From contig CP064960.1 in NCBI GenBank assembly GCA_016699105.1, positions 136,727 through 200,726 on the forward strand: DNA of 64,000 nt, given 5' to 3'. This stretch comes from a bacterium (GTDB lineage: Bacteria; Patescibacteriota; Saccharimonadia; UBA4664). The position numbers and the translations under genes were made by a program. The stretch's first letter is position 1. Every line of letters begins with the position of its first letter. The notes below the pieces were generated by a model. That model made no database searches. It saw nothing but the letters and a program-made list of their open reading frames with translations, and was not told the DNA's origin. Shown here piece after piece: positions 4,047 to 61,745 of the stretch.

Positions 4047-4116
4047 TACGCGTAATTTAATCCAAGAATATCGCGAGAGAGGAGATCAAGCTTATAAGTG
4101 GCATGATCGAATAGTT

Positions 4117-5367: not shown

Positions 5368-5401
5368 AACCTTTTTGTTAGTTCAAATAATAGCACAGGA
5401 G

Positions 5402-6514: not shown

Positions 6515-6517
6515 AAG

Positions 6518-7702: not shown

Positions 7703-7713
7703 GTTGGCTAATC

Positions 7714-9026
7714 CTAGTATTGGTTGATACCCATATCTTTGCCATCTGAGGCGGCGTTGCGACCCGGTGAGGCAGTGTTGAGTAAATAACCCAGCCAGGT
7801 ATTGACGGGACCAACATATGAAGGTGTACCAGTGATACTGCCGGTACCCTGGGCGCTACCAGAAGTAAACAGATTGTTAGTGCTGGTAAAGCCGACATTA
7901 TTGCCACCGCCGCCATTACCAATACCTGCCAGGATATTATTGCGAATAATGGTTGTACAAGCGCCACAAGCCGACTTGGAACCAAGTCCTATAGTGTCAT
8001 TTACGAATGTATTGTGCTGGATGATGGAGCCAGAGTCGTGATACCAGGTCATAGCTTCGCCGTGATTTCCAGGAGTGAAAACGTTGTACTCAACGAGATT
8101 GTTGCTCGAGCCATCAGCCATCATGATACCGGCTGCCACATTGCCATTGGGTCCGCCCCGCCGCCGATGAAAAGATTTCCACGAATCGTGACACCTGTTC
8201 CGCCGTAGATTTGGATGGGGTCAGAATGGTAAGGATCTTGATCGAGGATGTTAGTAAAGGTGTTGCCTTCGATAATGACACCGTCGGCATCAGCCCTGAT
8301 GCCGTCAGAATTGCCACCATCGAATAGTGAATTGCGAATCGTGATGCTATTGGTACCGCCCGTGCCCGATACATGTACTCGTCCCGCAACGCAGCTGCTA
8401 CAGGTATTGATATTGACGTGAGTATTGTGATCAAGAAGTAGGTTGTGCCCGGCGGCCGATTCAATATATACAAGATTGGTAAAAGCGGAATTTTTAATGG
8501 TGATGTTGCTGGAAGTTCCAGTGATATCGCCGCCACCAATAGTGAGTCCGTCCAAAGTAAAGCCACTGTCCCCATTGCCAAAACTAATACTCATGACTGG
8601 CGAGGCGCCAGATTGTTTGGTGATGGTAATGGCTTTACTGACCCCGGTAAACTCGCCGTAATTGCCACTGGCCAAGCAGACTACTTGTCCGGCGGTAGCC
8701 GCCGAGACGACGCCGGCAAAGGTGCTGGTTGTGGCATTGGTGGTGCAAGTGATGGGTGCGGCGGTGGGGGTGGGAGTTGGCGAGGAAGTAGTGCCTGCAC
8801 CAAACCGGACGATGCCAGTGCCGCTGGCGCCGCTGATCGACTGGACAACAGCGCCAGCCGAAAGCGTGCCAGTCTCGGGTTCGAAGGCGGCCGTGGGACC
8901 GGCAGCAAAACTGCGAGTGACAACATAGCCTAGCACCATGACAGCACCTACTACTGCCATGGCTCGGAATTTAACCCAGGAATTAGAGCCGAGATTTACG
9001 AGCCGGGTATTGTGCTTTATAAGCAT
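7714..9026 (-). CDS. Array paralog G6: N-terminal anchor module + beta-helix enzyme; one apparent -1 frameshift at ~8150 in a G/C run
   Basis: ORF 8121..9026 carries the module 'NSWVKFRAMAVVGAVMVLGYVVTRSFAAGPTAAFEPETGTLSAGAVVQSISGASGTGIVRF'. ORF 7714..8139 continues the beta-helix ('NLVEYNVFTPGNHGEAMTWYHDSGSIIQHNTF'). The two join at 'ggcggcggggcgg'. Confidence 0.55.
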
Positions 9027-9044
9027 AAGTGGTTCCTAAGTGTA

Positions 9045-10099
9045 TTAATCATGCACTTGAGGTGCTGGTATGGCAAGTCCGGTGTCCTCCCAGACATTAC
9101 CCGAGTAAGCGGAAAGTGTTGATTTGGTGGATAAAAGCACCGTGCAGCCGCCAAAACCTTGGTGTCGGCCGAATTTGTTGCCGGTAATACTGACTCCGGT
9201 GAGGTTCGATAACACTTTGTGCGCCACATTGATGGTGCAACCACCACCGTCGAGCCAGTTATTCGTAATCTGAATATTACTACATGCCTGACCAGCGTCT
9301 TGGGTAATCTGGTAAGCGGCATTACTACCTGACGAATTGGCGAGGTCGATGGTGGTGCCAGTGATGAGAATATTGGCATTACATTCGTAACTTTGGACAC
9401 CGTCATTGTGCGTCTCTCCCCGCCCTGGTTGGGATCGGAAGCAAAGTAAGCTAGGTCATGAATGTATGAATCGCGAATCGTGACGTTGTCGTAGGCCTTG
9501 ACGCCGTCAACGGCGCCGTGAATATTGGCGCGGAGAATCGTGCTATTGGAAGCCCAAATGCCATCCATACAGGCGGTGGCATTGCTGGGGGCAATTTCGG
9601 AATCTTGGAAGGTAAAGTTGGTGGCCGATTCCATGACCCAGAGCGGGGCGGAATTTTGGGCGTTACTGGATGTGCAGGGTTTGGTTCCTCCCCGAATAAT
9701 GGAATTTTTGATAGTAATGTTGGCACCATTGACGCGCACATATCCCCTAATGTCGAGACCAGAAATAACTTGGCCGTTGGTAGAGTAGGTCTGGTCGCCA
9801 TTGACGACGGTGAGCGATGTGCCAGCTGGAATGCCGGTGTTACTGGCTCCGGGTTTGCCACCGGGAGTGGGTGTAGCCGTGGGCGCCGGCGTTGGGCTCG
9901 GTGTGGAGATGGCAAATTTGACGACCCCACTGCCGGAAGCGCCGGATGCTGTCTGGACGGTGGCACTACCGGACAAGATACCAGTTTCGGGTTCGAAGGC
10001 GGCCAGGGGTCCGGCGGCCAGTGACCGCATCACAACGTAGCCTAAGATTGTGACTGCTCCGATGACGACGGCTAAGCGGGGTAAGTTTAACGTGCGCAT
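9045..10099 (-). CDS. Array paralog G7: N-terminal anchor module + beta-helix enzyme; apparent frameshift at ~9425 in 'ctccccgccc'
   Basis: N-terminus is 'LAVVIGAVTILGYVVMRSLAAGPLAAFEPETGILSGSATVQTASGASGSGVVKF'. After ~9425 the 9017..10099 frame becomes implausible. The beta-helix continues in frame 9045..9227 ('HKVLSNLTGVSITGNKF...'). Confidence 0.55.
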
Positions 10100-10124
10100 G
10101 CGTGATTGCCTTTATGCATAAAAA

Positions 10125-11216
10125 TTACGGGTAATTAACTGCTTGGCCGGACGACGTTTTATTATTCGCCCAACGGGTAAAGGTTGCGCCTGTCATAATG
10201 TCATAGTAACCCCATTGGCCGGCCACCAGATTGGCAAACGTATTGTCATAAAACGCAGCGTTAATCACATTTGGATCCATTCTGACGACATAACCGCCAC
10301 CATTGAAATAGTTGCCATATATTTGGGGTGTTGTAAATGAGTCACCTTGGAAAAAGAGGGCAGCGTTTTGATGAGTCCCGTCGAAGCCGTTCAGGTCGAT
10401 TCGATTGAAACGAAGTATTAAGTTGGGTGCATAAAAAACCTGCAGACCATCATTGTGTGACGCGTCGGCTTCGGTGGTACCGGTCAGAGCTAGATCGTGA
10501 ATATAGTTGTACTCAATGACATTGTTTGGGCCAGCCACATGAATACCATCGGCAAATCCAGTGATCTCGTTACGCTGAAGTTGAAAAATGGTACCACCCA
10601 TAGCTTTGATACCGCCGGCGCCGTTATTGAGTCCGGGAACTGATCCAGGTTTCCAGCGGATCGTGGAGTCACTGATTTTGACAATGGCTCCGTCAGCCCG
10701 ACTATTGACACCGCACCAGGTGCCATAGCCACCTTCGATGACGGAATTGGTGACGGTCAGAGTACCGGATCCGTAGAAATCGAGGCAGCCTTTGATGTAC
10801 ACATGGTCGAGTGTAATGTTATCGGCATTGACCTGCAGATAGCCGTACTGAGTGTCGTAATAGGTACCAGCAGGTGCAGCGGCGGCCGATGCTATGGTGG
10901 TGAGGGCAGATGTCGTGCCCCGGTAGCCGACAGTTCCGGCAGCAGGGTAGGTGTTGGTGGAAGGTGTGGTCGACGGTACTGGCGTCGGATTGACCGCGGT
11001 GCCCATACTAAATTGGACAACGCTGCCACCGGACGCGCCGGTGACGGTTTGGACGACGGCATCGTTAGCCAAGGTACCTGTTTCTGGCTCGAACGCCGCT
11101 AAGGGACCGGCCGCCCGGATGAGGGCAACGGCAATGACACCGGTGGCGACCGTGAGGCCGACAACGCCGATGATGGCACGGGACCGGGGCAGGGCTTGAG
11201 GCGTAAGCGTATTCAT
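10125..11216 (-). CDS. Array paralog G8: N-terminal anchor module + right-handed beta-helix (NosD/pectin-lyase-fold) enzyme
   Basis: Module 'VIAVALIRAAGPLAAFEPETGTLANDAVVQTVTGASGGSVVQF', then a PT linker. Beta-helix rungs are 'VIEYNYIHD', 'ILRFNRIDLNG' and 'QIYGNYFNGGGYVV'. Confidence 0.65.
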   Translation of the reverse strand: MNTLTPQALPRSRAIIGVVGLTVATGVIAVALIRAAGPLAAFEPETGTLANDAVVQTVTGASGGSVVQFSMGTAVNPTPVPSTTPSTNTYPAAGTVGYRGTTSALTTIASAAAAPAGTYYDTQYGYLQVNADNITLDHVYIKGCLDFYGSGTLTVTNSVIEGGYGTWCGVNSRADGAIVKISDSTIRWKPGSVPGLNNGAGGIKAMGGTIFQLQRNEITGFADGIHVAGPNNVIEYNYIHDLALTGTTEADASHNDGLQVFYAPNLILRFNRIDLNGFDGTHQNAALFFQGDSFTTPQIYGNYFNGGGYVVRMDPNVINAAFYDNTFANLVAGQWGYYDIMTGATFTRWANNKTSSGQAVNYP

Positions 11217-11236
11217 TGCTTATGCTTGATTATACA

Positions 11237-12358
11237 TCAGGGCTTAGGCAAGACAGCACCCTGGTTGCTGGCCTTGGTTGGATCATTGACATAATTTTGA
11301 TCCCACTGACTCCAACCGACACCGCCTTGAACGTAGGCTGCACCATAACCAGTGTTGCTGAGCCGGTTATTGGTGGCCACGAGATTACTGTAGGGCGAGT
11401 TGAGCAGATTGAGACCCAGCTGATACCCGGATCCCTCCAAGAGGTTGCCCGATATAGTGACGTTATCGATCCGTCCGGCGTAGGTTTGCAAAAATAGCGC
11501 GCCAGTATCATTGCCGGAGCTACAATCAAAGCGGTTATTGCGGACTAAGGCCGTACGACCTGGTGTCGAGCTGGCATCGAAATCGCGAATCGTGAAGCCA
11601 TCGGAGTGGTTGCCGGCGCCACCCGGGTCGCCATAGGCTTTGAGTTGGGTGACATAATTACCCTCGACTACACTCGAGTACGTACTGCCAGTATTCATGA
11701 GCCCGATACCACTGCCGAAGCCGTGAATGTAATTGTTTTTGAGGTCGGCAATACCGATGAAAGCGGTCGTGAAGGCAGCCTCTTGAGCACCCAGAAGTGA
11801 ACCGTCAAATTCGGAGTTGGAGATAGTGACTTTACCTTGGGCAGACTGGCAACCATTGGTGCCGCAGATGTTGGTATTAGTAGTAGTGACCAGCGGGTAG
11901 CCGATGCCAGCTGAAGTCGGCTTGAAGCATGACCGGTCGATGGTGATGTTACCGGCCGAAAGAACGAGGCCGACAGTTATACGTTTATTGGTAATAGTAG
12001 TACCGGCCGGGACATTTTCGGCACCGGTATAAACAGGTAATGAAGCACAATTAAGATCAACACTAGCCAAGCCGGTGTTGGCAGCTGTGATTTGCCAGCC
12101 ATAGAGACTACCAACTGGTGTCGGTGTGGGAGTAGCGCTAGATGACGCCGGAAATTGCACGACGGTAGCGCCATTGGTAACGGCCGTGACCGCTCCCGCC
12201 GACAGCGCGCCCGCTTCGGGCTCAAAAGCTGCCAGCGGACCGGCAGCAAAGCTGCGCGTAATGACGTATCCTAAGACAATTACGGATGCAATAACCACTA
12301 CAGCCCGAAGCCTGATCCAAGACAGTTTTGAGAGCAATATGAGCCGCGTTGTTGCCAT
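11237..12358 (-). CDS. Array paralog G9 (first in transcription order): N-terminal anchor module + beta-helix enzyme
   Basis: Module 'LSWIRLRAVVVIASVIVLGYVITRSFAAGPLAAFEPEAGALSAGAVTAV'. Rungs are 'LKNNYIHGFGSGIGL', 'VVEGNYV', 'LVRNNRFD' and 'ISGNLLEGSGY'. Confidence 0.65.
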   Translation of the reverse strand: MATTRLILLSKLSWIRLRAVVVIASVIVLGYVITRSFAAGPLAAFEPEAGALSAGAVTAVTNGATVVQFPASSSATPTPTPVGSLYGWQITAANTGLASVDLNCASLPVYTGAENVPAGTTITNKRITVGLVLSAGNITIDRSCFKPTSAGIGYPLVTTTNTNICGTNGCQSAQGKVTISNSEFDGSLLGAQEAAFTTAFIGIADLKNNYIHGFGSGIGLMNTGSTYSSVVEGNYVTQLKAYGDPGGAGNHSDGFTIRDFDASSTPGRTALVRNNRFDCSSGNDTGALFLQTYAGRIDNVTISGNLLEGSGYQLGLNLLNSPYSNLVATNNRLSNTGYGAAYVQGGVGWSQWDQNYVNDPTKASNQGAVLPKP

Positions 12359-13438: not shown

Positions 13439-14131
13439 TTAATTGAGCGCTTCGGCTAGCAGGCGACCGGTGTATTCGACCAAGCCGATGACGGGCGAAT
13501 ATTGCTGACGGGTTGGACCAAGAACACCGATATAGCTCCGGGAACTAAACGGTGACTCGAACCGGCTAATAATGAGTGTGGCACCCGACGTCCGGCCAAT
13601 GGGATTCTCCCGACCAATATAAACGGAGATCGGGTCACCCGGAGCAGCTTCGGCCAACCATTCTTCGAGACTATCGAGCAGCCGGGCGACTTCGTAGGCT
13701 TCCCGGCCGCCATAAAACTCCGGATGCTGAAATAACCCGGCCATACCAGACAAATATAGGTTGGGGCCGATGGTACCGAGGCCGAGATTGCCGGTGACAT
13801 GGGCGAGCGACTCTACAGCGTTCTTGATAGCTCGCTCGACTTCGCCGGCAGACTTAACACGTCGAGCCAAAGCTTGCTCGTGCCGGTGATCGTGCATGGG
13901 AGCGTCCATCGAATTGACATAGGCGCGATAGCCTTTGTCGGTAGGTACCCGGCCAGCAGAAATATGAGGCTGCATGATGAGATCAAGACTTTCGAGCGCG
14001 GCCATTTCCGATCTGACGGTAGCACTCGAAGTTTCAAATTGTTCACATAAAGCATTTGAACCCACGGGCTCAGCCGTGCGAGCATAGGTTTCGACAATTG
14101 CGTGGAGGATTTTGAGTTGGCGCGGGGTCAT
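13439..14131 (-). CDS. hrcA: Heat-inducible transcription repressor HrcA (short form)
   Basis: N-terminal winged helix 'LTPRQLKILHAIVETYARTAEPVGSNAL'. It sits next to grpE, with CIRCE elements nearby. Confidence 0.85.
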   Translation of the reverse strand: MTPRQLKILHAIVETYARTAEPVGSNALCEQFETSSATVRSEMAALESLDLIMQPHISAGRVPTDKGYRAYVNSMDAPMHDHRHEQALARRVKSAGEVERAIKNAVESLAHVTGNLGLGTIGPNLYLSGMAGLFQHPEFYGGREAYEVARLLDSLEEWLAEAAPGDPISVYIGRENPIGRTSGATLIISRFESPFSSRSYIGVLGPTRQQYSPVIGLVEYTGRLLAEALN

Positions 14132-14202: not shown

Positions 14203-14834
14203 ATCTGATAGAGATTGTCTATACGGCCGAGGAAGCTCGGAAAGCGGTTCCGGCGGTCAAGTAATATCGTCCGTCCAAAACCAGCCGCCTGGGCTCCTGC
14301 CATATCGTCGAGCGGGTTGTCGCCAATCATAATTGCCTGTTCAGCCGGAACTTGAGCTAGCTCGAGCGCAGCAGAAAAAATTGCTCGATCAGGTTTGATA
14401 GCTCCAACCGCATATGAGTTGGTAATGTAATCAAATCTCTCAGATAGAGCGAAAGTTTGATCTAACTGTTCGAATGCCGCCTGCGAAGTATTGGAGATGA
14501 GCCCTAGGCGGTATTTGTGGCGAAACTGCTCAAGCGTTTCGAGTGCATCATCATAGGGGCGCTGGCGGGCGAACCCACTTTCGATGATCTCGACAATGGT
14601 GCCTGTTAATCGCGATGACCGGGGCAGACCAAGAGCTTTGAGGAGCTGCCGGGCCCATACGTGTTGATCGAGACCGGGCTTGGTCATAAAAGCGTGCTCG
14701 AAGTGTTTGACGAATGGTCGGTTGAACGGAACTTTGAGGACATCACAAATGCGTTTGAGGTCGTCAGCCATATCAGAAGTAAAAAGGGTATACCAACAAT
14801 CGAAGAATATTACGGTGGGTTTGGCGCCAGACAT
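14184..14834 (-). CDS. HAD-superfamily hydrolase
   Basis: HAD motif I-like 'VIFFDCWYTLF' and a C-terminal 'IMIGDNPLDDMAGAQAAG' (motif III/IV). Confidence 0.6.
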   Translation of the reverse strand: MSGAKPTVIFFDCWYTLFTSDMADDLKRICDVLKVPFNRPFVKHFEHAFMTKPGLDQHVWARQLLKALGLPRSSRLTGTIVEIIESGFARQRPYDDALETLEQFRHKYRLGLISNTSQAAFEQLDQTFALSERFDYITNSYAVGAIKPDRAIFSAALELAQVPAEQAIMIGDNPLDDMAGAQAAGFGRTILLDRRNRFPSFLGRIDNLYQIGTLDA

Positions 14835-29427: not shown

Positions 29428-30211
29428 TTGATTATATTGCACTTATCTCCTATTACTTGATCCGCTCCATCTGAATCCAGTACCCCTACAATTTGATAGT
29501 GCGCGGGTTCATCCACGAGGCCAAAATATCAGCCCGATTCAAATTGTTGGTCAAGTTGGTGGCGGGTCGTCCCAATATGAATTCGGCGCCCTGCGCCAGC
29601 GAACCGCGGTGCTCCGGGATGCCATCAGCGGGGCGATTCTGGAGCTGAGACGAACGATTGTAACTAGTGGCGCACTGTGGCCGCAAATCGATATTGAACT
29701 CTTACCCGTAATGATGGTAGGTTTGTCGACTGACAGTTGGGGTCAATTGATGACAACGTGGGGTCGCCCATCCGCCTGATGTTGCACCGCCTCATCGGCC
29801 ATTGTTGGAGTCTCATCTGCCAATGAGGCATCTACCGACGTGCCAGACGCGTTTAGTCCCGCCGGCTATGATAGCCGGCGGGACCGCGGTTCATTGCGCA
29901 CTGGGTCGAAGCTTTTTGATTATATGGAAGCTGGTTTACTTCTCATCTTCATTTGGCGGCCCCAGTACCAGACTGAGCTGTTTCCTCGGAATGTCCATTT
30001 CGAAGTGTCTACGGGTTTCCGATCGCCTTTGGTGGGCTTTTCTTCATCCTTATCTGGGTCTTTTTCGGACATTACGACCACCTATTCTTGTCGATTGTAC
30101 CTGGCGAGTGGGATGCGCTGAGAACCCAGCTACAGCATATCACGGATCAAGCTTGATTGACTATTTCTTGACATCGGCGCAAGTATTGGGAATTGTGCTA
30201 CCATAAGGGTT

Positions 30212-32072: not shown

Positions 32073-32158
32073 ATGATATTCCCGATTAATTAATGTTCTT
32101 ATCTGTATTATCCTTATGCTGCAACAGATGTCAACAGATTTGGGCAAAAAAGTTGCGC

Positions 32159-32416
32159 TTAGACATCGGCGAAGAGCGTCACGTTATCGCTAGATACTCG
32201 CAAGATGCCGCGAGTAATAGGAAATTCAAGCTGTTGAAAGCCAGTATTTAAGGTGATTGTTCCGCCGGTGAGAAGAGAGAAAAAGTTGATATGACCAGCC
32301 AGGATGTCGAAGGGACCGGTGCGGTTGGCGGCACTGAGTGATACTGCTTCGCCTTCGTAATATGTCTGGTAGGGGCTAAAGATCTTAATTTTGAAGCGCT
32401 TGAGTTTTTTATCCAT
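32159..32416 (-). CDS. atpC: F1 ATP synthase epsilon subunit
   Basis: 85 aa. 'KIKIFSPYQTYYEGEAVSLSAANRTGPFDILAGHINFFSLL' is the epsilon beta-sandwich signature. It lies 13 nt downstream of atpD. Confidence 0.8.
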   Translation of the reverse strand: MDKKLKRFKIKIFSPYQTYYEGEAVSLSAANRTGPFDILAGHINFFSLLTGGTITLNTGFQQLEFPITRGILRVSSDNVTLFADV

Positions 32417-32428
32417 GATTGATTCGAA

Positions 32429-33956
<1,528 letters not shown>

Positions 33957-34866: not shown

Positions 34867-34968
34867 CCTCCGCCCCAGGGCCTTGACAGGTGTACTAACC
34901 AAGTACGCTCGTCGAGGCCCTTTGACTTGTTATAGCGGGATCAAATCTTTTGGATTCGATGTTTTAAA

Positions 34969-34988
34969 TTAGGACACTTTGCGCCTAA
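34969..34988. repeat. Solo copy of 20-bp palindromic-ended repeat core TTAGGACACTTTGCGCCTAA
   Basis: Same core as the four copies in the tRNA-Asn island (51793, 51993, 52946, 53554). It lies between the 3' ends of 34108..34866 and the AT-rich gene 35130..36302. Confidence 0.75.
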
Positions 34989-35129
34989 TTTTAGTGCATT
35001 AGGTATTCTGAGTCCGAGCAATTATGAGTCTAGATGACGCAGGTAATTTTCGGTGGCCGCACACTACATACTTTATGCTTACGTGCATTGCGGAGACTTA
35101 GTCTACTGCATAGATTCAAAATATATTTC

Positions 35130-36302
35130 TCACTTATCATTAAGGGGCATTGTTGAAAACTCTTTTAAATAGATCATTGATGCGTCGTATTTTTCAAATT
35201 CGTGGCTTAACTTCACAGATTGCCTTTGAGATATAATTGCTCTGTTAGTGTTAACCCACAGATCATGCGAATTTATACCTATGCAACTTAAGGGGATATC
35301 TTCGGAGTCAAGATAATAATCAATTGTCTTATGAAACCACTTTGATTTAGTCTCTAAGTCTTCTAAGTTGATTTGATGATTGAGGGCAGCATTTGGTGGT
35401 AAGTTAAGGTTTGCAATTCCTGAGACTATTCTAAAATCATTGGCATGGTAACTATACTCACCGATTTTATACACTTTAAATGGATGTAGGATTGTTTGAG
35501 GCGTAATTGTGTGTAATTGACTGTTCAATGTATCTTTAAACGAGTTAACGTAATCAGCTTCACATCCGAATATAAAATCTTTTGCATACCAAGCAATTAA
35601 ACTATTAATTTCGTTCGCTTTTTCAGCTGATAATTTCGTATATCGTACGTTTGCCAACCAACTTCCATATTTATAACTGGCAATTATTCGTCTACGTGCA
35701 ATCGTAACTTTTAATATTAACTTCTTATCTATAGGTATATACCAGCCTACAGCACGACCTTTCGAATCAAAAAATCCCGCTAAACCTCGTTCATTTGAAA
35801 TGGCCGAGATATTTTCAGGCAGAATTAGTATTTCCCACTCTGATGCCATGATCGGACACAATAGGTTCAACAGATAATCAACTCTGTTGCTATTAAGATT
35901 ACTTTCACTTAGTAATCCTAATGGCTTCAAATGCTGAACGATTGGATGGGTATTATACCTATCGTTGAAGTCTTGTCCACGGGCGAAAAGACCGCTAACA
36001 AGCGGTACCAATACATGAATAAATTCATCTAGATACAGAGGTGGCTCGTGGACCAACTTTGCAATCAATGGCGTAATTGGTGATTCGTATCCCCAATCAT
36101 CTACACTTTTCCAAACGTTAGTGTCGTCTAAGTCGTCATAAAATCGGTTTACAACACTTACCTGAGAAGCCATTTTAAGGTGTGCTGAAATTTGCCCTCG
36201 CCTGATTTGCCATACTTTTCTACTTCTAGTTTCCGTTTCTATGTCGGAAGAAAAGCGACCAATTAAAGCAGCGGGTATAATGTGTTGCTTCTTACCGCTC
36301 AT
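35130..36302 (-). CDS. AT-rich, probably horizontally acquired gene; DUF4238-like protein
   Basis: 390 aa. The N-terminus 'KKQHIIPAALIGRFS...NRFYDD' resembles the DUF4238 'HY(V/I)PQ.YL..F' start motif. Base composition is strikingly AT-rich relative to the adjacent atp genes. Confidence 0.5.
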   Translation of the reverse strand: MSGKKQHIIPAALIGRFSSDIETETRSRKVWQIRRGQISAHLKMASQVSVVNRFYDDLDDTNVWKSVDDWGYESPITPLIAKLVHEPPLYLDEFIHVLVPLVSGLFARGQDFNDRYNTHPIVQHLKPLGLLSESNLNSNRVDYLLNLLCPIMASEWEILILPENISAISNERGLAGFFDSKGRAVGWYIPIDKKLILKVTIARRRIIASYKYGSWLANVRYTKLSAEKANEINSLIAWYAKDFIFGCEADYVNSFKDTLNSQLHTITPQTILHPFKVYKIGEYSYHANDFRIVSGIANLNLPPNAALNHQINLEDLETKSKWFHKTIDYYLDSEDIPLSCIGINSHDLWVNTNRAIISQRQSVKLSHEFEKYDASMIYLKEFSTMPLNDK

Positions 36303-36341
36303 GATAATTGTATATTAGTTTATAAGGAACATTTTAGAAGA

Positions 36342-37202: not shown

Positions 37203-38703
37203 TTAATTCTTGCCGTCTTTTTTAGCAGGTGTGGCTGGTGGTTGCCCGGGAGGAGGGGCTGCGGGAGCTGGCGGTGGAGGAGCGGGCGCTTGGACCGTCA
37301 CTTCGGACAGCAGCTTGGTAATTGCGCCATCCCAGTCGGATTCAGGTGTGAGGGTGGGAGCCACTTCTTTGGCTTTGCGTTTGAGGCTGTCAATGTTGAT
37401 AGTGATTTTGCCTTCAGTTTTCATGACTACACCCAGGATGAGGTCCTGCTCATTAATACTATAGACGACATCCGGAGGCTGCTTGAGGGCTTCGTAAATC
37501 TTTTTGCCCAACTCAAGATCGGCTTTTGACTCAATGGCTAGTTCTGAGCCGAAGTGACTAAATTCGGCGGCTTGGCGATAGGCGGCGAGCTTTTTGAACA
37601 GGGCGGCGGTCAAGGCTTTTTGACGCTTGTTCTGACCAACACCACCGACACGGGAGACGCTCAAACCGACGGAGATAGCGGGTCTGATGCCGGCCCGGAA
37701 GGCCTCGGTATCAAAGATGAGCTGGCCGTCGGTGATGGACATGATGGCGGTTGGAAGTGGTGCGGTAATGTCGTTATTGGGCGTTAGCACCACGGGGATT
37801 GCGGCCAAGGTAGCGCCGTTTTTGGCGAGGCGGCCGGCACGTTCCAGCAACGAAGAGTGAGCGTAAAACATATCGCCTGGATACGAGGCCCGGCCGGGTG
37901 AGGTTTTGAGCAACAGTGATAACTCGCGATAAACTTTGGCGTGATTGGATAAATCGTCATAAAATGATGACGCAGTCTTTGCCGCTATTCCATAAGTATT
38001 CGGCGACGGTGACGCCGACGTACGGTGCTAAATAACTTTGGGTGAGCGAATCAAAGACACTGGCGACAATCACCACACTGTAGGCCATAGCTCCAGACTT
38101 GTTGAGCTTGGCGATGAGGCTGTCGACGTCGGCTTTGCGCTTGGAGATAAGGACATGGATTACCAGCCGGCCGGTGCCAGCCTGAGCGAGCGTTAGTTGC
38201 ATCGTAATAGCTGATTTACCAACCTTATTGTCACCAAGAATGGCAATACGTTGGCCTTTGACGAGCGGGAAAAGCTGGTCGGCGATGGCGACACCGGTGG
38301 AAAGCGGGTCTTTGAGCTCTTGACGTTCGATAATACCGGGAGCTACCTTGAACACCGGGTCATAGCGGGAAAATGTTACGGGTCCTTTGCCATCCAGGGG
38401 TTGACCGGTGACAGATAAAACTCGACCGATAACAGCCTCGCCGACACCAGTGACTAATTCGGGAGCTTCAAGCACGACGAGGGTACCAATGGCGATGGTT
38501 TCAGCCGTCATATTAAGTACCATAACCGTGTCGAGATGGACTTCACGCACCATACCTTGGTGGCCGTTATCGAAGTAAACTAACGCTCCAACGGCAATAT
38601 CACCGAGTCCGCGAACCGTCACAATAAACCGGTCGACTGCGATGACTTCGCCGGAGGCATTGCCAGCCGCTACTAGTTTGGCAAATTTGGGATTATCAAA
38701 CAC
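37203..38703 (-). CDS. atpA: F1 ATP synthase alpha subunit (one apparent frameshift in a T-run at ~37940)
   Basis: ORFs 37957..38703 and 37203..37913 have a seamless alpha-subunit join: 'GKDCVII[Y]DDLSNHAKVYRELSLLLKTSPGR(E)AYPGDMFYAHSSLLERAG'. Walker A 'GDNKVGKS'. Confidence 0.9.
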
Positions 38704-51464: not shown

Positions 51465-51539
51465 TCCGGAGTAGCTCAGTGGTAGAGCAGTTCGCTGTTA
51501 ACGAATTGGTCGTCGGTTCGAGCCCGACCTCCGGAGCCA
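51465..51539 (+). tRNA. tRNA-Asn (GTT)
   Basis: tccggagtagctcagtggtagagcagttcgctGTTaacgaattggtcgtcggttcgagcccgacctccggagcca. Perfect 7-bp acceptor with encoded CCA. Confidence 0.9.
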
Positions 51540-51689
51540 TTGAAAATGCGTCAGCTTAGTCTGGCGCTTTTTCAATAGTTTTGACGAGGGGAACCGAACC
51601 GGTACGGTTCGGCGGACGAGGAGCGCAGGAAACGGACAAGCTGGCTTGGCTGATTTCCGAGCACCGCAGGGAGGTGGCGCTAGCCACTG

Positions 51690-51706
51690 CCCGACCTCCG
51701 GAGCCA
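51690..51706 (+). repeat. 17-bp direct repeat of the tRNA-Asn 3' end (cccgacctccggagcca); att-site-like scar
   Basis: Identical to 51523–51539. The upstream 'ggcgctagccactgccc' (51671–51689) recurs at ~52088–52107. Confidence 0.7.
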
Positions 51707-51741
51707 GGAATTATTTGCCCGAGCAGACTTGCGGTAGTAGG

Positions 51742-52050
51742 TCTGTTTTTGTTTTGGGATTCGCGCAAATGCTACCGAGTTCATATAGCAAATTAGGACA
51801 CTTTGCGCCTAATGTTAGGCTGACGGACTTATAATGTGAATATGAAGGTCAACAAGCAAAGGCACGAGGCCAACCGCATGCCCAAAAACCCATCGCTCGA
51901 TGGCAAAATGCTCGAGGAAATACAGCGTCGGGGATTGCCGGTTCCACACTACACGCTTGGTGAGTGAGACAAATGTCATGTGGGTAAAAAATAGGCGCAA
52001 AGTGTCCTAATTTAGCTCGAAACGACCCGAGATTTTTCGCCAAAATACCT
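51742..52050. repeat. Repeat-bounded cassette A: L unit (51742–51812, core TTAGGACACTTTGCGCCTAA at 51793) ... R unit (core inverted at ~51993–52012 plus conserved flank to 52050)
   Basis: The L and R cores are inverted copies ~200 bp apart. The R flank 'tttagctcgaaacgacccgagatttttcgccaaaatacc' is ~97% identical to the R flank at 53574–53612. The L flank 'tttttgttttRGtattcgcgcaaat' is shared with 52890–52915. Confidence 0.7.
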
Positions 52051-52333
52051 GCCATGCGTAGGGTGTTTTTCAACTGTTGGCGGGGGATGGCGCTAGCCAC
52101 TGCCCAAGAAGCATTTGCGCCTGATATGATTGAGTTATGTTTTTCAATGCCCACACTTATTACTCGATCAAACGGAATAGTGATGTTGCCGAACCGATGC
52201 GTATTGTAGGTGCGCTTCTAGCGGATAGTGCACTTACGGGAGTGATTAGCTGGACCGACCTGCATGATAAAACTGCTATCAAGGACTTCTCTGAGAGCTT
52301 GGGAAAGATGAAGCGCTGTTAGGCAACGGCCTA

Positions 52334-52759
52334 ATGGACCACTACGAGCTGGACTTGCGGAGTCATGACACATTCCAAAACGACGCTGGATACGCATTTT
52401 CGCACCAGACGCAGCGACTCAGAGAGCTGGTGGCGCAGGCTTGCGGATTTGATACCCCTGAACAAGCTCGCGGTATAGCACATAACTTCATCGAGGCAGG
52501 TGTAGATGTTAATTTGCTACGAAGTGACGGACACGTTCAGGGCCTGGTGCGCGAGTCTCTGAGCGCGGTTGATATTGAGCTTATTTCGAAATATGTAGCC
52601 GACTTTTTAAAGGCCAATCCAGCTGATACAAGAACTAAGCTAACTGCATATATAGATTTGCTCGTGAAATACGATTTAAGGGATCTCGACGAATGGGTGA
52701 AACTGTGGGTCGAAATAATTTCCCTGCTTTTAAAGAAAAAGCCGATGATCATGCCATAA
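52334..52759 (+). CDS. Hypothetical protein (island cargo)
   Basis: 141-aa ORF between cassette A and cassette B. No recognisable domain. Confidence 0.4.
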   Translation: MDHYELDLRSHDTFQNDAGYAFSHQTQRLRELVAQACGFDTPEQARGIAHNFIEAGVDVNLLRSDGHVQGLVRESLSAVDIELISKYVADFLKANPADTRTKLTAYIDLLVKYDLRDLDEWVKLWVEIISLLLKKKPMIMP

Positions 52760-52889
52760 GAGAGGTGCTTCAATTAGCTGTTGAGTTGACGGCTAAGGAT
52801 TACCAAAAGGTTATCGCCCCGTATTACCGCTAGTAGCCTGCCGCAAGCTCAGCCGCCCAGTCCTGCGCACATACCCGCAGGGCTGGGCG

Positions 52890-53612
52890 AGACCGATTTT
52901 TGTTTTAGTATTCGCGCAAATTAGTCCAACTTATTATCGGTAAAATTAGGGCACTTTGCGCCTAATTCTTGGTGCGTTTGATATGATGACAATATGTTGC
53001 GCTTAATTGTCTTATCTGGTTTACCGGGCTCGGGCAAAAGTACCGTTGCCAAGGCTATTGCCAGCGAGCTACACCTGCCAATCTACTCAGTCGACCCCAT
53101 GGAATCGGCGATTATTAAAGCAGGTTTTGATCGTAGTTTTAAGACGGGGTTGGCGGCCTATTTGGTTGCGGAAACCCTGGCGGATGAACAACTAAGTCTT
53201 GGTCAGACGGTAATAATTGATGCCGCAAATTATGTCCGAGAGGCTCAGGAAATGTGGATCAAATTGGCAAATAAACATGGTGCCGAGCTCAAGGTCATAG
53301 CATGCATTTGTGCAAATGAGACTCAACATCAAGAGCGGATAGCTAAGCGAGTTCGAGCACTTCATGGTATTCCCGAGATAACGTGGTCGGATGTTGAAAA
53401 ACGAAAAGTTGAGAGCACACCCTGGCAAACTGAGCACGTGGTACTTGATACAAATCGGGCATTTAATGCCACAATGCACGAGGCTCTGAAATACATTTCG
53501 GCCTAAACTATGCCAATACGATTTGTCTGACGGTCGTATAATGTGCAAAATATTTAGGCGCAAAGTGTCCTAATTTAGCTCGAAACGACCCGAGATTTTT
53601 CGCCAAAATACC
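52890..53612. mobile_element. Repeat-bounded cassette B: L unit (core TTAGGGCACTTTGCGCCTAA at 52946–52965) – single P-loop kinase gene – R unit (core inverted 53554–53573 plus flank)
   Basis: Inverted 20-bp cores bracket a ~610-bp segment containing only ORF 52994..53506. The architecture resembles a minimal TIR-bounded element or gene cassette. No transposase is present. Confidence 0.5.
52994..53506 (+). CDS. P-loop NTPase / kinase (AAA_33/zeta-toxin/PNK-like family)
   Basis: Walker A 'LSGLPGSGKSTVAKA' and Walker B-like 'TVIIDAANY'. About 170 aa. Confidence 0.65.
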   Translation: MLRLIVLSGLPGSGKSTVAKAIASELHLPIYSVDPMESAIIKAGFDRSFKTGLAAYLVAETLADEQLSLGQTVIIDAANYVREAQEMWIKLANKHGAELKVIACICANETQHQERIAKRVRALHGIPEITWSDVEKRKVESTPWQTEHVVLDTNRAFNATMHEALKYISA

Positions 53613-53891
53613 GGCCACTGATGGACTGATAGCTTTATCGGTGCGGTGGATGCAACCCAGCCAACAACACGGCCGCCGTTTGCCCTCCTGAAGTTCGGTG
53701 ACGGTGCGCTGAATATGATTTTGGCGGGTCGATTCTTGTTTAACTTCGATATTCCAACAAATCCATTCGTTGCGGGCGAGCGGTGTTAGACTTTCCCAGG
53801 CTTTCACGGCAGCCGGTGCAGTACTCAGCGCAGTACGCAAGTCGGCCGGTAAATCGTGAACGGTACCTGATGCGAGAGAAATTGTGGTCAT
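53508..53891 (-). CDS. YdeI/OmpD-associated family-like protein; 3' end reads into the R repeat
   Basis: 'WICWNIEVKQESTRQNHIQRTVTELQEGKRRPCCWLGCIHR'. The last ~30 codons ('ILAKNLGSFRAKLGHFAP...') are encoded by the repeat unit. The same peptide appears in the spurious ORF 51849..52154. Confidence 0.5.
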   Translation of the reverse strand: MTTISLASGTVHDLPADLRTALSTAPAAVKAWESLTPLARNEWICWNIEVKQESTRQNHIQRTVTELQEGKRRPCCWLGCIHRTDKAISPSVAGILAKNLGSFRAKLGHFAPKYFAHYTTVRQIVLA

Positions 53892-53924
53892 GGCACTATT
53901 TTAACCTATATACTGGCTTATTAT

Positions 53925-54421
53925 GCGCATTATGATTTTGGCGATGTCGCCAGTGGCAAGAGTACAATTTCAAAAAATTAGGTGCTCATTTGGGCCTGCC
54001 GGTACTGCACCTGGATGAGGTCATGATGAAACTTGGTCGAGATCAAAAGCCCACATTAAAGATTACATACATCAAGAAGCCGATAAGGCTGATTGGATAA
54101 TCGAGGGCAACGCCTTTACCAAAGACAAGTCTTATCGAATCGAGCGTGCCGATGTAGTGATCATGTTTGCTGCCAATCGATTTGTGACGCTGTATCGTCA
54201 TATGCGACGGGTTTGGCGGGTGAGGCATGGGCGAGAAGTCATGCACGGTGGGGCAAGTGGCGATTTCAAACTTAACTATTACATTCCTTACACGCTATGG
54301 CATTTCCCCATCGGCGGCGCCAGGCGGAACAACGGGTAATCGCCGCCGGTAAGCAGATCATTGTGGTGCGCAGCTTCGACGAAGGATTGGCGTTGCTTAA
54401 GACGTTCGAGACCGACCGATG
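53925..54421 (+). pseudogene. Decayed P-loop NTPase ('topology modulation protein'/adenylate-kinase-like) with ≥4 frameshifts
   Basis: Fragments in three frames: 'MRIMILG', 'DVASGKSTISK' and 'LGAHLGLPVLHLDEVMMKLGRDQKP'. Then 'EADKADWIIEGNAFTKDKSYRIERADVVIMFAANRFVTLYRHMRRVWRVRHG...' and a C-terminus 'EQRVIAAGKQIIVVRSFDEGLALLKTFETDR*'. Several shifts are in A-runs, so some may be sequencing error, but the density is above the window average. Confidence 0.5.
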
Positions 54422-57677: not shown

Positions 57678-59143
57678 ATGAAACGGGCAATAGTCATTGG
57701 GGCGGGATTTGGTGGCATGAGTGCAGCCGCCTATTTAGCCAAAGATGGTTACGAAGTCACGGTGGTTGAGAAAAACGCCCAGCCAGGCGGGCGGGCTTAT
57801 ACTATGAAACAAGCTGGCTTTGTTTGGGAATTGGGCCCGAGTTGGTACATGATGCCCGATGTTTTTGAGGAGTTTTTTGCCGATTTCGGGCATAAGGTTA
57901 GCGATTATTATGAATTGAAACCATTGACACCGGCTTACCGCGTCTTTGATAATGATGGATCACTTGATATCGGGGGACTGGAGGCAACGGCTGGAGTGTT
58001 TGACCGTGTAGTAGCGGGCGACGGCGCCGGCTTACGACGCCTGCTGGCAGTAACCGAACGGGATTACCAATCGGTGCGTGCCAATGTACTGACGAGCGAC
58101 TGGCTGTCGTGGCGGCAAGCAGTGCGACCACAGGTGTTGCGGTTTTTGCTGAATCCGGAAATGGTAATGTCATATGATGCACGCATTAAACGCTATATCC
58201 AAGATGAACGGTTGGTGCGCGTGCTCGAGTTTATGACCGTGTTTATGGGCGGCAGCCCCAGCAATATCCCGGGCATGTATAGTTTGCTGGCGTATGTGGA
58301 TATGGGTTTGGGCATCAGTTACCCTGTCGGCGGCTTTACGGCAGTGGCTCGCGCTTTTATGCACGTTGGCCAGGAAGTAGGAGTTACCTACCGCTTCGAT
58401 AGTGAAGTGGCTCACATTGAAACAGTTCAGGGGTCGGTCAGGGGTGTGAAGCTGGTCAACGGCGATGAACTGCCAGCTGACTTGGTGGTCGCGAACGCCG
58501 ATTATCATCATATACAGACTCAGTTATTGTCTGCGGCGGCGCGGGACATATCCGAATCAAAGTGGGCGCGTAAGACATTGTCTCCATCGGGCCTTTTGGT
58601 ATCACTGGGCGTGAAAGGGCGCCTGCCGGGATTACTGCATCACAACTTGTTTTTGATACGAATTGGGACGAGCATTTTGATGCGGTTTTTAGTTCAAAAC
58701 AATGGTCATGCGATCCCTTGTTTTACTTGTGTGTACCCAGTAAATCTGACCCACAGGTGGCACTCTCGGGTCATGAAAACTTGTTTGTACTGGCTCCGCA
58801 AGCTGCCGGTGTCGAGCCGAGTGACACAGAGCTTGCGGCGACGGTTTCTCATATTGTTGACCGCATCGAACGGCGGGCCGGGGCTGCGGTTTCAGAGCAC
58901 ATCGTGGCTCAAGACGTCCGAACCGCCTCATTCTTCGAGGAAACTTTCCACGCATATCAAGGGAATGCCTTTGGACTAGCCCATACCTTGCGCCAAAGCG
59001 CACTGTTCCGACCGCCAGTGAAGGCGCGCAAAGTGAAGGGTTTGTATTTTGTAGGACAGTACACCAATCCGGGAACGGGAGTACCAATGGTGGTACTATC
59101 AGGCAAAACTGTAGCTGGAGCCGTGTGCCGTCATGGAGCTTGA
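57678..59143 (+). CDS. crtI: Phytoene desaturase CrtI (one apparent frameshift in a T-run at ~58650)
   Basis: FAD fold 'AIVIGAGFGGMSAAAYLAKDGYEVTVVEKNAQPGGRA'. After 'LLHHNLF' the +1 frame continues 'DTNWDEHFDAVFSSKQWSCDPLFYLCVPSKSDPQVALSGHENLFVLAPQ...GQYTNPGTGVPMVVLSGK'. Confidence 0.85.
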
Positions 59144-59206
59144 GCAAGCTATATTCAAAAAAGGCAGTACGACGTATTACTGAGTAGTAAGTTCTTCCCG
59201 GCTCAG

Positions 59207-59956
59207 GTGAGACCGGCAGTCTTTCGGTTGTACAGTTTCGTGCGCGTGGTCGACGATTATGTTGATCAAGTGCCTCCCGATGAAGCGGCTTTTGAGCTGA
59301 TTGAAAATGCTTGGCACCAGGATTTGGACTTACCGACTGAGTCAGTATCGGGCCGAGTGCTCAACAATATGCGAGCCGTCAGTCAACACCATGGCGTGCA
59401 ACGAGCCTGGGTAGATGACTTTCTCCAGAGTATGCGTTGGGATGTCGAAGGCCGGCACTATGAACTGCTCGAAGATAGCCTCGAGTATGTCTATGGCTCA
59501 GCCGAAGTAATTGGACTAAGTATGGCGGCGATATTGGAACTGCCACCGGCTGCTACTGCTGCAGCCAAGCTCCAAGGGCGGGCGATGCAATGGATTAATT
59601 TTTGTCGCGACATCCAAGAAGATTTGGATTTAGGGCGGTGTTACTTTCCGACCGCTGATCTCCGGCGTCATGAGTTGGTGGATTTACATGAATCGACAAC
59701 CCGGAAACAACCGGCGCATTTCCGCGCATTTATGACCGAGCAGTTGGATCGATACGATAGCTGGCAGCAGGCAGCCAATAAAGGCTACCAATATATCCCC
59801 CGTCGATTCCGTATACCCGTCCAAACGGCTCGCGACATGTACAACTGGACGGCCGATCAGATACGACAAGACCCATTTGTAGTTTATGAGCGTAAAGTCA
59901 AACCGACTAAAAGCCAGGTGGTGGGTGCCATAGTGAAAGCGAGTCTGCATGGATAG
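59207..59956 (+). CDS. crtB: Phytoene synthase CrtB (true start probably upstream, ~59150–59185, non-ATG)
   Basis: 'RPAVFRLYSFVRVVDDYVD' (first Asp-rich motif) and 'YVYGSAEVIGL..INFCRDIQEDLDLGRCYFP' (second motif). The in-frame upstream 'SSKFFPAQV' also aligns with CrtB N-termini. Confidence 0.8.
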   Translation: MRPAVFRLYSFVRVVDDYVDQVPPDEAAFELIENAWHQDLDLPTESVSGRVLNNMRAVSQHHGVQRAWVDDFLQSMRWDVEGRHYELLEDSLEYVYGSAEVIGLSMAAILELPPAATAAAKLQGRAMQWINFCRDIQEDLDLGRCYFPTADLRRHELVDLHESTTRKQPAHFRAFMTEQLDRYDSWQQAANKGYQYIPRRFRIPVQTARDMYNWTADQIRQDPFVVYERKVKPTKSQVVGAIVKASLHG

Positions 59957-60653
59957 TCTGACCTATTTATTGTTTAACGTGGCAGTGGCTACTTCGTTGA
60001 TAGGAGCGGTGTTGTGGACGCCGCGACTGTGGCGAAATTGGCGAGGGCTAGTAATTGGCCTGGTGATTGTTAGTGGACCATTCATCATCTGGGATATGCT
60101 AGCCACTGCCGCCGGGCATTGGAGTTTTAACCCCATATATACGCTGGGTTGGCAGCTGGGTGAATTGCCGGTAGAGGAGCTGTTATTTTTTGTGACGGTA
60201 CCGCTCGGTTGTATGGTGGCATGGGAGCTGTTGCGCCGAACCGGTGCGGAGGCAGTAGTGTTATCGCCACGCCAAGCTCGATGGATTATGGTCGTACTTG
60301 CTGTGATGGGTGCGAGTGGTGTGTGGCTTGCTGGCGGGAACCAATACACTCAATTAGCTTTACTGAGCCTGGCGGTAGCCTCCGTGACGCTGGCACTGAA
60401 TCCGCAATTAGTAGCAAAAAAGCAATGGTGGTGGTACCAATTGGTGGGGTTGGGATTGTTTTTCGTCAGTAATAGCATCTTGACCGGGGTGCCGGTGGTG
60501 CAGTACGGATCGGAATTTATCATTGGTTGGCGAGTTGGCACGATTCCGGTGGAGGATTTTTGGTATAATTTTGCATTGTTGAATCTATTCTTGGTGGCAT
60601 ATGAATACTCAAGTCGTCGCCAAAAGCGGTTGGCGTCAGGTATTATTACTTAA
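59949..60653 (+). CDS. Lycopene cyclase domain protein (fused heterodimeric CrtYcd type)
   Basis: Two internally repeated membrane halves: 'IIWDMLATAAGHWSFNP..ELPVEELLFF' and 'GVPVVQYGSEFIIGWRVGTIPVEDFWYNF'. These carry the PLEE/PVED-type motifs of CrtYc/Yd cyclases. Confidence 0.65.
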   Translation: MDSLTYLLFNVAVATSLIGAVLWTPRLWRNWRGLVIGLVIVSGPFIIWDMLATAAGHWSFNPIYTLGWQLGELPVEELLFFVTVPLGCMVAWELLRRTGAEAVVLSPRQARWIMVVLAVMGASGVWLAGGNQYTQLALLSLAVASVTLALNPQLVAKKQWWWYQLVGLGLFFVSNSILTGVPVVQYGSEFIIGWRVGTIPVEDFWYNFALLNLFLVAYEYSSRRQKRLASGIIT

Positions 60654-60656
60654 GAC

Positions 60657-61745
60657 ATGAAAAGCGAATTTGTAGCCCGTCTGGGGCAATACAAACAGCT
60701 CATAGAGCGTGTATTGAGCGACTACATTGAGCAGACACTGGCGCAAGTAGCCCGCGAGTATGGCAGCGATGCGGCCGACGTGACCAAGGCGTTTTTGGAT
60801 ATTTTGGGGCGGGGCGGTAAGCGGATGCGCGGATCACTGGTATTGGCCGGCTACGAGCTCGGCGGTGGTCAAAATCAGGCGGCCGCCATTCAATTGGCTA
60901 TGGCACTCGAGATCACGCATGCCTATTTACTGATGATTGACGACATTCAGGATCGATCGGATTTGCGCCGTGGGGGCCCTACCGCTCATATTGCTTTGCA
61001 GCAGCGTTTCCGGCACGGTTTGGCCGAAGACGAGGCCGCCCATGTGGGTATGGCGTTGACGCTCAATGCTGCTTTGTACGGTGCTCATAGCGCCCAAATT
61101 GTGGTAAGCCAGCTCGATGCCCCCGCCGATGTCAGGCTGGCGCTCATTCAATTAGTTAACCAGTCAATGATGGCCACAGCCCACGGACAATCGTATGACC
61201 TGATAATTGGTTTGCGCGATCAGGTGTCGTATGCAGCCATCGAACAGGTGATGGAACTCAAAAGCGGCGAATATTCCATCATGAATCCCTTAGCTGCCGG
61301 ATTAACGTTGGCTGAGGCATCGCCTGCCGAGCTGAAGCTGATTCATGATTATGCTTTACCGACGGGACTAGCATTTCAGCTCAGTGATGACATCATCAGT
61401 ACATTTCGAGATGAAGCCGAAACCGGCAAACCAGCTAAAAGTGACATTCAGGAGGGTAAATGGACTGCCCTGATTGCCTTTGCGGTCGAACAAGGCGCAG
61501 CAAGTGATGTAGTGTTTTTGCGATCATGCCTAGGCAGCGCTGACCTATCAGATGATGATTTCGAACATTGTCGAACTATTTTGCGAAAAAGTGGATCTCT
61601 TCATCGAACCGAAGAATTACTGACCGAATATGTTCAGCGAGCGGAATCTGCATTATCAAAATCTCCTCAGAGCTGGCCGAGGGAAACAGTTGAGTTCTTG
61701 CGATCGATAGCCCAGTATATGCGAGAGCGAGCTATCAAGGTATAG
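60657..61745 (+). CDS. crtE: Polyprenyl (geranylgeranyl) diphosphate synthase
   Basis: FARM 'LLMIDDIQDRSDLRRG' and SARM 'GLAFQLSDDIIS'. Confidence 0.8.
   Translation: MKSEFVARLGQYKQLIERVLSDYIEQTLAQVAREYGSDAADVTKAFLDILGRGGKRMRGSLVLAGYELGGGQNQAAAIQLAMALEITHAYLLMIDDIQDRSDLRRGGPTAHIALQQRFRHGLAEDEAAHVGMALTLNAALYGAHSAQIVVSQLDAPADVRLALIQLVNQSMMATAHGQSYDLIIGLRDQVSYAAIEQVMELKSGEYSIMNPLAAGLTLAEASPAELKLIHDYALPTGLAFQLSDDIISTFRDEAETGKPAKSDIQEGKWTALIAFAVEQGAASDVVFLRSCLGSADLSDDDFEHCRTILRKSGSLHRTEELLTEYVQRAESALSKSPQSWPRETVEFLRSIAQYMRERAIKV

Follow-up and report, generated by a model that had tools for sequence, protein, structure and literature searches.

A recurrent 26-bp near-palindromic core in a strain-variable islet beside tRNA-Asn of a Saccharibacteria-like genome

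In auxiliary-operator pairs such as lac O1/O2 and gal OE/OI, two sites on either side of a gene or promoter exert their effect through looping of the DNA. Genomic islets adjacent to tRNA genes are left by integrase-mediated integration, and known dif sites carry the inner sequence ATAA-N6-TTAT. The pdif sites of Acinetobacter plasmids consist of a XerC arm, a 6-bp spacer, and a XerD arm, with inverse, alternating sites bounding modules whose recombination needs identical 6-bp spacers (PMC13141974). Here we describe an islet beside a tRNA-Asn gene in a 64-kb stretch of contig CP064960.1 from a Saccharibacteria-like organism (hereafter the window, meaning the whole 64,000 nucleotides), in which a 26-bp near-palindromic core recurs in alternating orientation around single genes. 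An earlier note on this DNA had read the islet as an integration scar followed by two cassettes, A and B, that may be mobile, and had named an operator as the alternative. The underlying observation is sound and the islet is strain-variable at the tRNA; the mobile-cassette mechanism is not supported. To judge from its placement and conservation, the recurring core most likely serves as a regulatory site particular to this lineage.

A search with the 20-bp core TTAGGRCACTTTGCGCCTAA returned five matches in the window at no more than one mismatch, against 0.01 expected, at 34969(+), 51793(+), 51991(-), 52946(+), and 53554(-). The last four alternate + - + - around a 41-aa open reading frame (ORF41) and a P-loop kinase gene, and common left (L) and right (R) blocks were recovered around them, which bears out the earlier description of two units that each comprise an L flank, cargo, an inverted core, and an R end. 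In full, the core is a 26-bp dyad, AAATTAGGRC / ACTTTG / CGCCTAATTT, with arms that are symmetric at 8 of 10 positions and an ACTTTG spacer that is identical in all five copies. We refer to the copies flanking ORF41 as LA (AAATTAGGAC-ACTTTG-CGCCTAATGT; 51790-51815, + strand) and RA (51988-52013, - strand, with one mismatch), to those flanking the kinase gene as LB (52943-52968, + strand) and RB (53551-53576, - strand), and to a fifth, unpaired copy that had previously been missed as C5 (34966-34991, + strand). The cores of the first pair lie 198 bp apart and those of the second 608 bp.

The core is conserved far beyond its surroundings. Independent copies are 91% identical over the 26 bp, while the 30 nt on each side agree at 30-33% in ungapped comparison, which is about random. 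Sister-strain contigs, reached via the kinase's 90%-identity cluster, add a second line of evidence. They distinguish a haplotype H1, represented by the window and contig L042, from the sister-strain haplotype H2 (e.g. contig L032, which matches the window at 96-97% identity by blastn across the 9 kb that border the islet on either side). The kinase, both its cores, and the following gene, ydeI, are kept in H2 at about 91% identity, and homology between the haplotypes restarts at 52939, the left edge of LB. There the left arm of the core is haplotype-specific (AAAATTAGGG vs AATATTAGGA), everything upstream of the core is replaced, and the kinase promoter, from the core to the ATG, is kept in both. 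At the other end of the kinase unit, the 76 nt at 53517-53592, which hold a promoter-like 19-mer, RB, and the last ydeI codons, contain one variable site among strains where about nine would be expected. Because the 26-bp boundary is sharp and the core is kept in a block that is otherwise 9% diverged, these comparisons point to a selected, sharply bounded site that would be recognized in a sequence-specific manner.

The site is also rare. The earlier note had allowed that the core might be a promoter motif occurring hundreds of times across the genome; instead we found five copies at two loci in the 64-kb window and two copies in about 45 kb of H2. The core is absent from 1.27 Mb of further loci, retrieved as relatives of GSDH and ilvA, exact-pattern scans gave zero matches each in a one-genome-per-species set, in JGI metagenomes, and in IMG/VR, and blastn of the islet against phages and plasmids gave no match. 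In public genomes and metagenomes, GSDH and ilvA have relatives at no more than 57-60% identity, none of them syntenic, and the nearest GSDH relative in the genome collection (57%) lies in a Candidatus Saccharibacteria metagenome-assembled genome. Given the low copy number and the lack of matches in the other sequence examined, the core can be neither a general promoter motif nor an uptake sequence, nor can it belong to a family of repetitive extragenic palindromic (REP) or miniature inverted-repeat transposable (MITE) elements; for a DNA uptake sequence or a REP element, the copy number is in itself far too low. Known motifs were also compared and rejected, as CIRCE differs in sequence from the core (hrcA lies at 13439-14131) and the GG...GC spacing is 3 nt too short for a sigma-54 promoter. 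A degenerate pattern, AAATTAGG-N10-CCTAATTT, yielded 71 singletons in IMG/VR that we regard as noise, and a protein search for open reading frames (ORFs) reading through the core found none, with a query built partly on an erroneous frame of the window (five T for six, described below).

Three cores stand at a nearly constant distance from promoter-like sequence. LA ends 17 nt ahead of a -10 box, TATAAT (51830-51835), LB ends 16 nt ahead of TATGAT (52982-52987), and C5 ends 15 nt ahead of TATTCT, beyond which lies a 25-codon ORF; the spacers of LA and LB are unrelated in sequence. These cores span roughly positions -49 to -29 of the respective promoter, which is leaderless for ORF41 and the kinase. 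Many well-supported genes, including lepA, ddl, murJ, tilS, GSDH, and ydeI, start 6-8 nt past a TAnnAT box with no conserved -35 element, a pattern suggesting that many transcripts of this Saccharibacteria-like genome are leaderless, and the starts of ORF41, the kinase, and ORF232, a gene between the cassettes, all fit it. Such starts, without Shine-Dalgarno spacing, are found window-wide (e.g. at 14834, 18467, 18582, 20123, 21826, 25882, 44299, 50214, and 56179). RB, in turn, lies 15 nt downstream of a conserved, TATAAT-bearing and promoter-like 19-mer (CTGACGGTCGTATAATGTG, the same as CTGACGGNCNTATAATGTG; 53527-53545, + strand), which had been overlooked and is also found at 51820-51838. At both LA and RB, the 19-mer CTGACGGNCNTATAATGTG is 7-8 nt away from the core on its right-arm side, but its orientation relative to the core is opposite in the two. 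A small RNA made from the 19-mer promoter and RB was considered and rejected, RA being without a promoter and the second stem being only 4 bp long.

Because three independent cores lie at a fixed distance from -10 boxes and RB lies near the conserved 19-mer, we favor an operator. We hypothesize that the core is the binding site of an unlinked, predicted sequence-specific DNA-binding protein, in an islet built by integration at the tRNA, duplication, and microhomology recombination; we put this forward tentatively, as plausible but short of probable. The layout, the copy number, the strain differences, the spacing to the promoters, and the coding nature of the R flank are established here; that a protein binds the core and that this binding regulates transcription we infer. 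Occupancy of the core would switch the accessory genes ORF41 and the kinase, most simply by repression, and the inverted downstream copies RA and RB could provide a second site for looping or act as a roadblock, with RB overlapping the start of the conserved promoter-like element that would point antisense into ydeI. The islet itself may have been assembled through integration at the tRNA site, leaving an 18-bp attachment (att)-like duplicate, through a segmental duplication yielding RA, through the swapping of one gene for another (ORF232 vs ORF203), and through indels with microhomology at their junctions. As in the lac and gal operator pairs, a near-palindromic site covers the -35 region and is accompanied by another copy some hundreds of bp further downstream (198 and 608 bp here). 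Unlike in those pairs, the putative regulator is unlinked, the sites are near-identical across different genes and strictly inverted, and C5 is unpaired. Should the core be an operator, the accessory genes that it marks would form a small regulon specific to this species, an uncultured bacterium with a reduced genome; this would be useful mainly for annotation, alongside the evidence for leaderless, -10-only promoters.

Several observations weigh against an operator. Neither RA nor RB precedes a gene when oriented as LA and LB would act, and RA lacks a downstream -10 box. No candidate regulator was identified, none lies near the sites, and the neighboring ORFs are without a family match. The operator alternative of the earlier note fits the anatomy better than mobile cassettes do, as three independent cores stand 15-17 nt ahead of a -10 box, at promoters of which two are leaderless. 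The 6-10 bp at the dyad center are as invariant as the arms, a feature seen more often in recombination sites than in operators bound by dimers, and three of the five cores (C5, RA, and LB) lie within 45 nt of a structural-variant boundary, as a recombination site would also predict. The sequence examined is, moreover, limited to 64 kb from this genome and about 55 kb from its sister strains.

The islet begins at the tRNA-Asn (GTT) gene (51465-51539, + strand; ARAGORN, with an Rfam tRNA score of 69.9 bits), and an Rfam scan found nothing besides this tRNA. As reported earlier, the last 17 nt of the gene, CCCGACCTCCGGAGCCA (18 with the preceding G), recur perfectly and only once, at 51690-51706, 150 nt past the tRNA, against 0.01 expected. 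The left copy of this att-like repeat is formed by the last 17-18 nt of the gene (51522-51539), and the second (GCCCGACCTCCGGAGCCA; 51689-51706, + strand, repeat search) is abutted by a previously overlooked 24-nt direct repeat, GGGAGGTGGCGCTAGCCACTGCCC (the same as GGNGGCGCTAGCCACTGCCC; 51669-51692, + strand), the other copy of which lies at 52082-52105, both being specific to H1. The L flanks of the two cassettes have a common 25-nt block, TTTTTGTTTTRGKATTCGCGCAAAT, at 92% identity (51746 vs 52897); the first of these blocks (TTTTTGTTTTGGGATTCGCGCAAAT; 51746-51770, + strand) is found again at 52897-52921 and is absent upstream of the kinase in H2. The R ends have 77 nt in common at 91% identity and 63 nt at 98% (51978-52054 vs 53541-53617), and a repeat search places inverted arms of 27-28 nt on both sides of each cassette. 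The islet is a mosaic of short repeats, and its G+C content is below that of its surroundings.

Comparison with the sister strains shows that the 3' flank of the tRNA-Asn gene is a strain-variable insertion point. In the H2 contigs L032-L041 and L057, the tRNA runs straight into its terminator, constituting an empty site with one copy of the 17-nt repeat as opposed to two in H1. The segment present in H1 and absent from H2 (blastn against L032-L043) measures 501 bp (51547-52047, with no strand assigned) and includes a variant tRNA terminator, the att-like copy, the 24-nt repeat, and cassette A. We regard the perfect 18-nt tRNA repeat as best explained as an old integration scar. The empty site agrees with the integration proposed earlier, although the att-like copy lies inside the 501-bp segment, which reaches 341 bp past it, and not at the segment's end. 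Like other tRNA-adjacent islets, this one has a duplicated 17-18-bp tRNA 3' end downstream, a strain-variable segment, and a G+C content lower than that around it; it differs in that the repeats are just 150 bp apart, that no integrase was detected in the window, and that the 501-bp segment continues beyond the second repeat.

The earlier note had proposed a comparison of empty sites in related strains, and on this point the two cassettes part ways, as cassette A is absent from H2 and cassette B is kept everywhere, the kinase unit with both its cores occupying the same place in all 13 related contigs. Between them, H2 has an unrelated 203-aa ORF (ORF203) where H1 has ORF232. One and the same sample yielded contigs of both haplotypes (L040 and L042). 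A 7-nt microhomology, CCTGCCA, marks the junction of the 501-bp segment, and two other indels without a core have microhomology junctions of 4 and 14 nt; gain and loss at the islet do not require a dedicated enzyme. Among the short-read contigs L035-L037 and L040-L042, several end 6-19 nt past RB, as is expected if RA and RB are duplicates or if both haplotypes coexist in the samples. Elsewhere in the window, a 184-bp insertion relative to the sister strains lies downstream of tRNA-Met (29990-30173; 4-nt microhomology, TCGG), and a 574-bp segment next to atpC, at 32156, is present in H2 only. Downstream of ydeI, a 492-bp segment carrying a frameshifted second P-loop kinase (53915-54406) is absent from H2; its junction shares GAGACCGACCGATG, and no core is nearby.

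What had been taken for the flank of an element end proved to be protein-coding. Some homopolymers in the window have the wrong length (both R flanks, for example, read T5 in place of T6), and several of its ORFs are artificially split or extended; its differences from short-read contigs of the same strain are almost solely of this kind. One such artifact is a 127-aa ORF at 53508-53891, produced by the T5/T6 error. The real gene there is ydeI (OmdA family; 53575-53891, - strand, by family search and strain comparison), with a product of about 104 aa. Across phyla, members of the YdeI (OmdA) family end in ...SPSVxGILAKRxK, and in H2 the gene ends in ...AGILAKKSRVVSS*, its stop codon abutting RB, which in the window likewise abuts the true stop codon (TAA, complement of 53575-53577). 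The R flank of about 40 bp accordingly encodes the conserved YdeI C-terminus ...AGILAKKSRVVSS*, which had not been noticed before, and strain variants within it are mostly synonymous in translation. The corresponding flank of RA (52011-52054, - strand) is a duplicated ydeI 3'-end fragment, likewise ending in ...AGILAKKSRVVSS* and 98% identical to 53574-53617. On this sequence evidence, RA arose by segmental duplication of the core together with the last 14 codons of ydeI and is not a transposon end. The main argument for a terminal repeat is thereby removed. We had also entertained core, hairpin, and tail as one mobile module of 65-75 nt, with a tail matching insertion ends in an nhmmer profile, but withdrew this for RA and RB because the YdeI alignment shows their flank to be conserved coding sequence and because independent flanks are about random.

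These results bear directly on the proposal that cassettes A and B are non-autonomous, MITE-like elements with terminal inverted repeats, or integron-type cassettes, mobilized by an enzyme encoded elsewhere. The inverted 27-28-nt arms around each unit and the presence or absence of cassette A among strains are what such elements would show, and the units resemble integron cassettes and shufflons in being single-gene units with an imperfect 3' palindrome and in having inverted repeats that flank a promoter-bearing segment. However, no target-site duplication was found at cassette A, cassette B, or the DUF4238 insertion that holds C5, their flanks being without a common direct repeat. The 501-bp indel exceeds cassette A and has its left end at the tRNA rather than at LA, so that its boundaries are not at the L and R ends, and the terminal flank on the R side is ydeI coding sequence. 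The position of cassette B is invariant, the kinase unit being fixed in the 13 contigs, each cassette occurs in one context only, and there are only five copies of the core, with none in other genomes, metagenomes, viruses, phages, or plasmids. By inspection, the attC order RYYYAAC...GTTRRRY is absent and the polarity of the core is the opposite (TTAGG...CCTAA), and the R''/L''-L'/R' layout of attC is likewise missing. The cassette ORFs carry their own -10 boxes and are not promoterless, and no alternative orientation occurs in any contig. The lack of an integrase or transposase gene, noted before within 5 kb, extends to the whole window, where neither precomputed Pfam labels (29-64 kb) nor our own scans detected any recombinase or transposase family, IntI and invertases included. 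Mobile cassettes are therefore largely refuted, and we consider them highly improbable.

A site-specific recombination site used in trans is a different matter. Here the core would consist of inverted arms of about 10 bp around an asymmetric 6-bp spacer (or have a 12-2-12 layout), and the segments between oppositely oriented cores would be exchangeable or invertible modules, as in Acinetobacter dif modules or a shufflon. The cores do have the layout that defines dif modules (two arms, a 6-bp spacer, and alternating inverse sites): the arrangement is 10-6-10, the ACTTTG spacer never varies, and single-gene segments are bounded in strict + - + - alternation, as dif modules are. At the left edge of LB the homology of H1 with H2 breaks off, with a different left arm in each haplotype, cores lie close to the ends of two strain-specific insertions, and the locus adjoins a tRNA with an att-like scar. 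Further similarities to Acinetobacter dif modules are asymmetric sites of about 26-28 bp, the lack of target duplications and of a linked recombinase, and a module content that differs between close relatives. Against this, no recombinase was found in the 64 kb, two insertion boundaries lie 38-41 nt off the core and not within it, one of the presumed flanks is ydeI coding sequence, and none of 13 + 10 + 5 related contigs has an inverted or relocated arrangement or any other recombination product. The copy number is low, and the core is unlike the dif consensus, which derives from known dif sites and may not be the host's. In contrast to the plasmid-borne modules, the islet is on the chromosome of a Saccharibacteria-like organism, and its variant boundaries fall outside the site. 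Overall, we judge a recombination site to be possible but unlikely. By analogy, the core might be recognized by an unlinked tyrosine or serine recombinase, its inverse copies delimiting exchangeable single-gene modules, as a chromosomal counterpart of dif modules through which a Saccharibacteria lineage with a reduced genome would reassort its accessory genes, with the tRNA-Asn flank and the atpG-atpD spacer among the hot spots; this broader proposal we regard as doubtful. If correct, it would represent a module-shuffling system outside Acinetobacter plasmids and offer a handle on gene-content variation in Saccharibacteria. Unless reads reveal recombination at the cores, the finding is of modest weight.

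The position of the cores would also suit an RNA or single-strand hairpin, serving as a bidirectional terminator or 3'-end stabilizer and copied along with genes. Each core has at least one gene ending upstream of it (RB and C5 are placed between convergent genes), the TTAGGCGCAAAGUGUCCUAA strand folds as an 8-bp stem that includes one bulge and a G.U pair, a T-rich run follows four of the five cores when these are read in the other orientation, and in some copies the hairpin strand folds better than its complement (z = -4.5 vs -0.2 for C5). Yet most cores fold no better than shuffled sequence (z from +0.6 to -1.9, save one C5 strand at -3.2), the stem is A/T-rich, the U-tracts are short or partial, LA and LB are already preceded by G+C-rich hairpins, and Rfam has no match for the core hairpin. 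A terminator also needs no invariant loop or spacer, whereas all 26 nt are conserved here amid random flanks, and we find this explanation quite unlikely. Very unlikely, in our estimation, is that the cores are functionless leftovers of repeated local duplication in a fast-changing islet. The 63-77 nt common to RA and RB are clearly a recent duplicate and a mosaic of short repeats fits such an origin, but a core that stays 91% identical between random independent flanks calls for selection or for conversion time and again, neither haplotype has lost the core even though their kinase-ydeI blocks are now only 91% identical, and a further copy lies 17 kb away at the atp locus.

That fifth copy belongs to a strain-specific insertion of 1413 bp between atpG and atpD (34928-36340, - strand), which includes a DUF4238-like gene (35130-36302) and is absent from the H2 contigs L044 and L048. 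The insertion begins one base past the atpG stop codon, C5 is 41 nt inside its end, and the DUF4238-like gene has its own -10 box and was found in the atp locus context only among related contigs. The junction shows an imperfect repeat (CCCGGTTAAT vs CCCGCTATAACA), and in the sister strains the atpG-atpD spacer holds only a convergent 272-aa ORF.

The gene content of the two cassettes is as first described, a tiny ORF in A and a single P-loop kinase gene in B. ORF41 (51842-51967, + strand; 41-43 aa) has a leaderless-type start (TATAATgtgaatATG) and no family match. The kinase (AAA_33, Pfam E=7e-18; 52994-53506, + strand; 170 aa) has the leaderless start TATGATgacaatATG, is found in every related strain, and is identical in product to QQR52736.1. 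The previously overlooked ORF232 (52137-52833, + strand; 232 aa; leaderless start TATGATtgagttATG) is a real gene that is intact in L042 and L043 and split by homopolymer errors in the window; its AlphaFold model was too poor to use (predicted local distance difference test, 50). PADLOC and NCBIfam returned nothing specific for the cargo ORFs. Split or extended ORFs are located at 32159-33893, 37203-38703, 52137-52833, 53508-53891, and 57678-58979, corresponding to atpD, atpA, ORF232, ydeI, and a phytoene-desaturase-like gene. Since the same-strain short-read contigs differ in homopolymer lengths only, the disruptions of ORF232 and ydeI are probably assembly errors and not pseudogenes, and we assume the same homopolymer cause for atpD, atpA, and the phytoene-desaturase-like gene.

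Two further features of the window lie apart from the islet. A tandem array of about 11 paralogous genes (1645-12358, - strand) encodes proteins with a common N-terminal membrane segment, followed by 'AAGPLAAFEPETG(T/S)LS...SGASGSGVVKF' and then by divergent sequence. A carotenoid-type gene set at 57678-61745, comprising an amino-oxidase/phytoene desaturase, a phytoene synthase, a lycopene cyclase, and a polyprenyl synthase, is unexpected in a reduced-genome Saccharibacteria-like organism.

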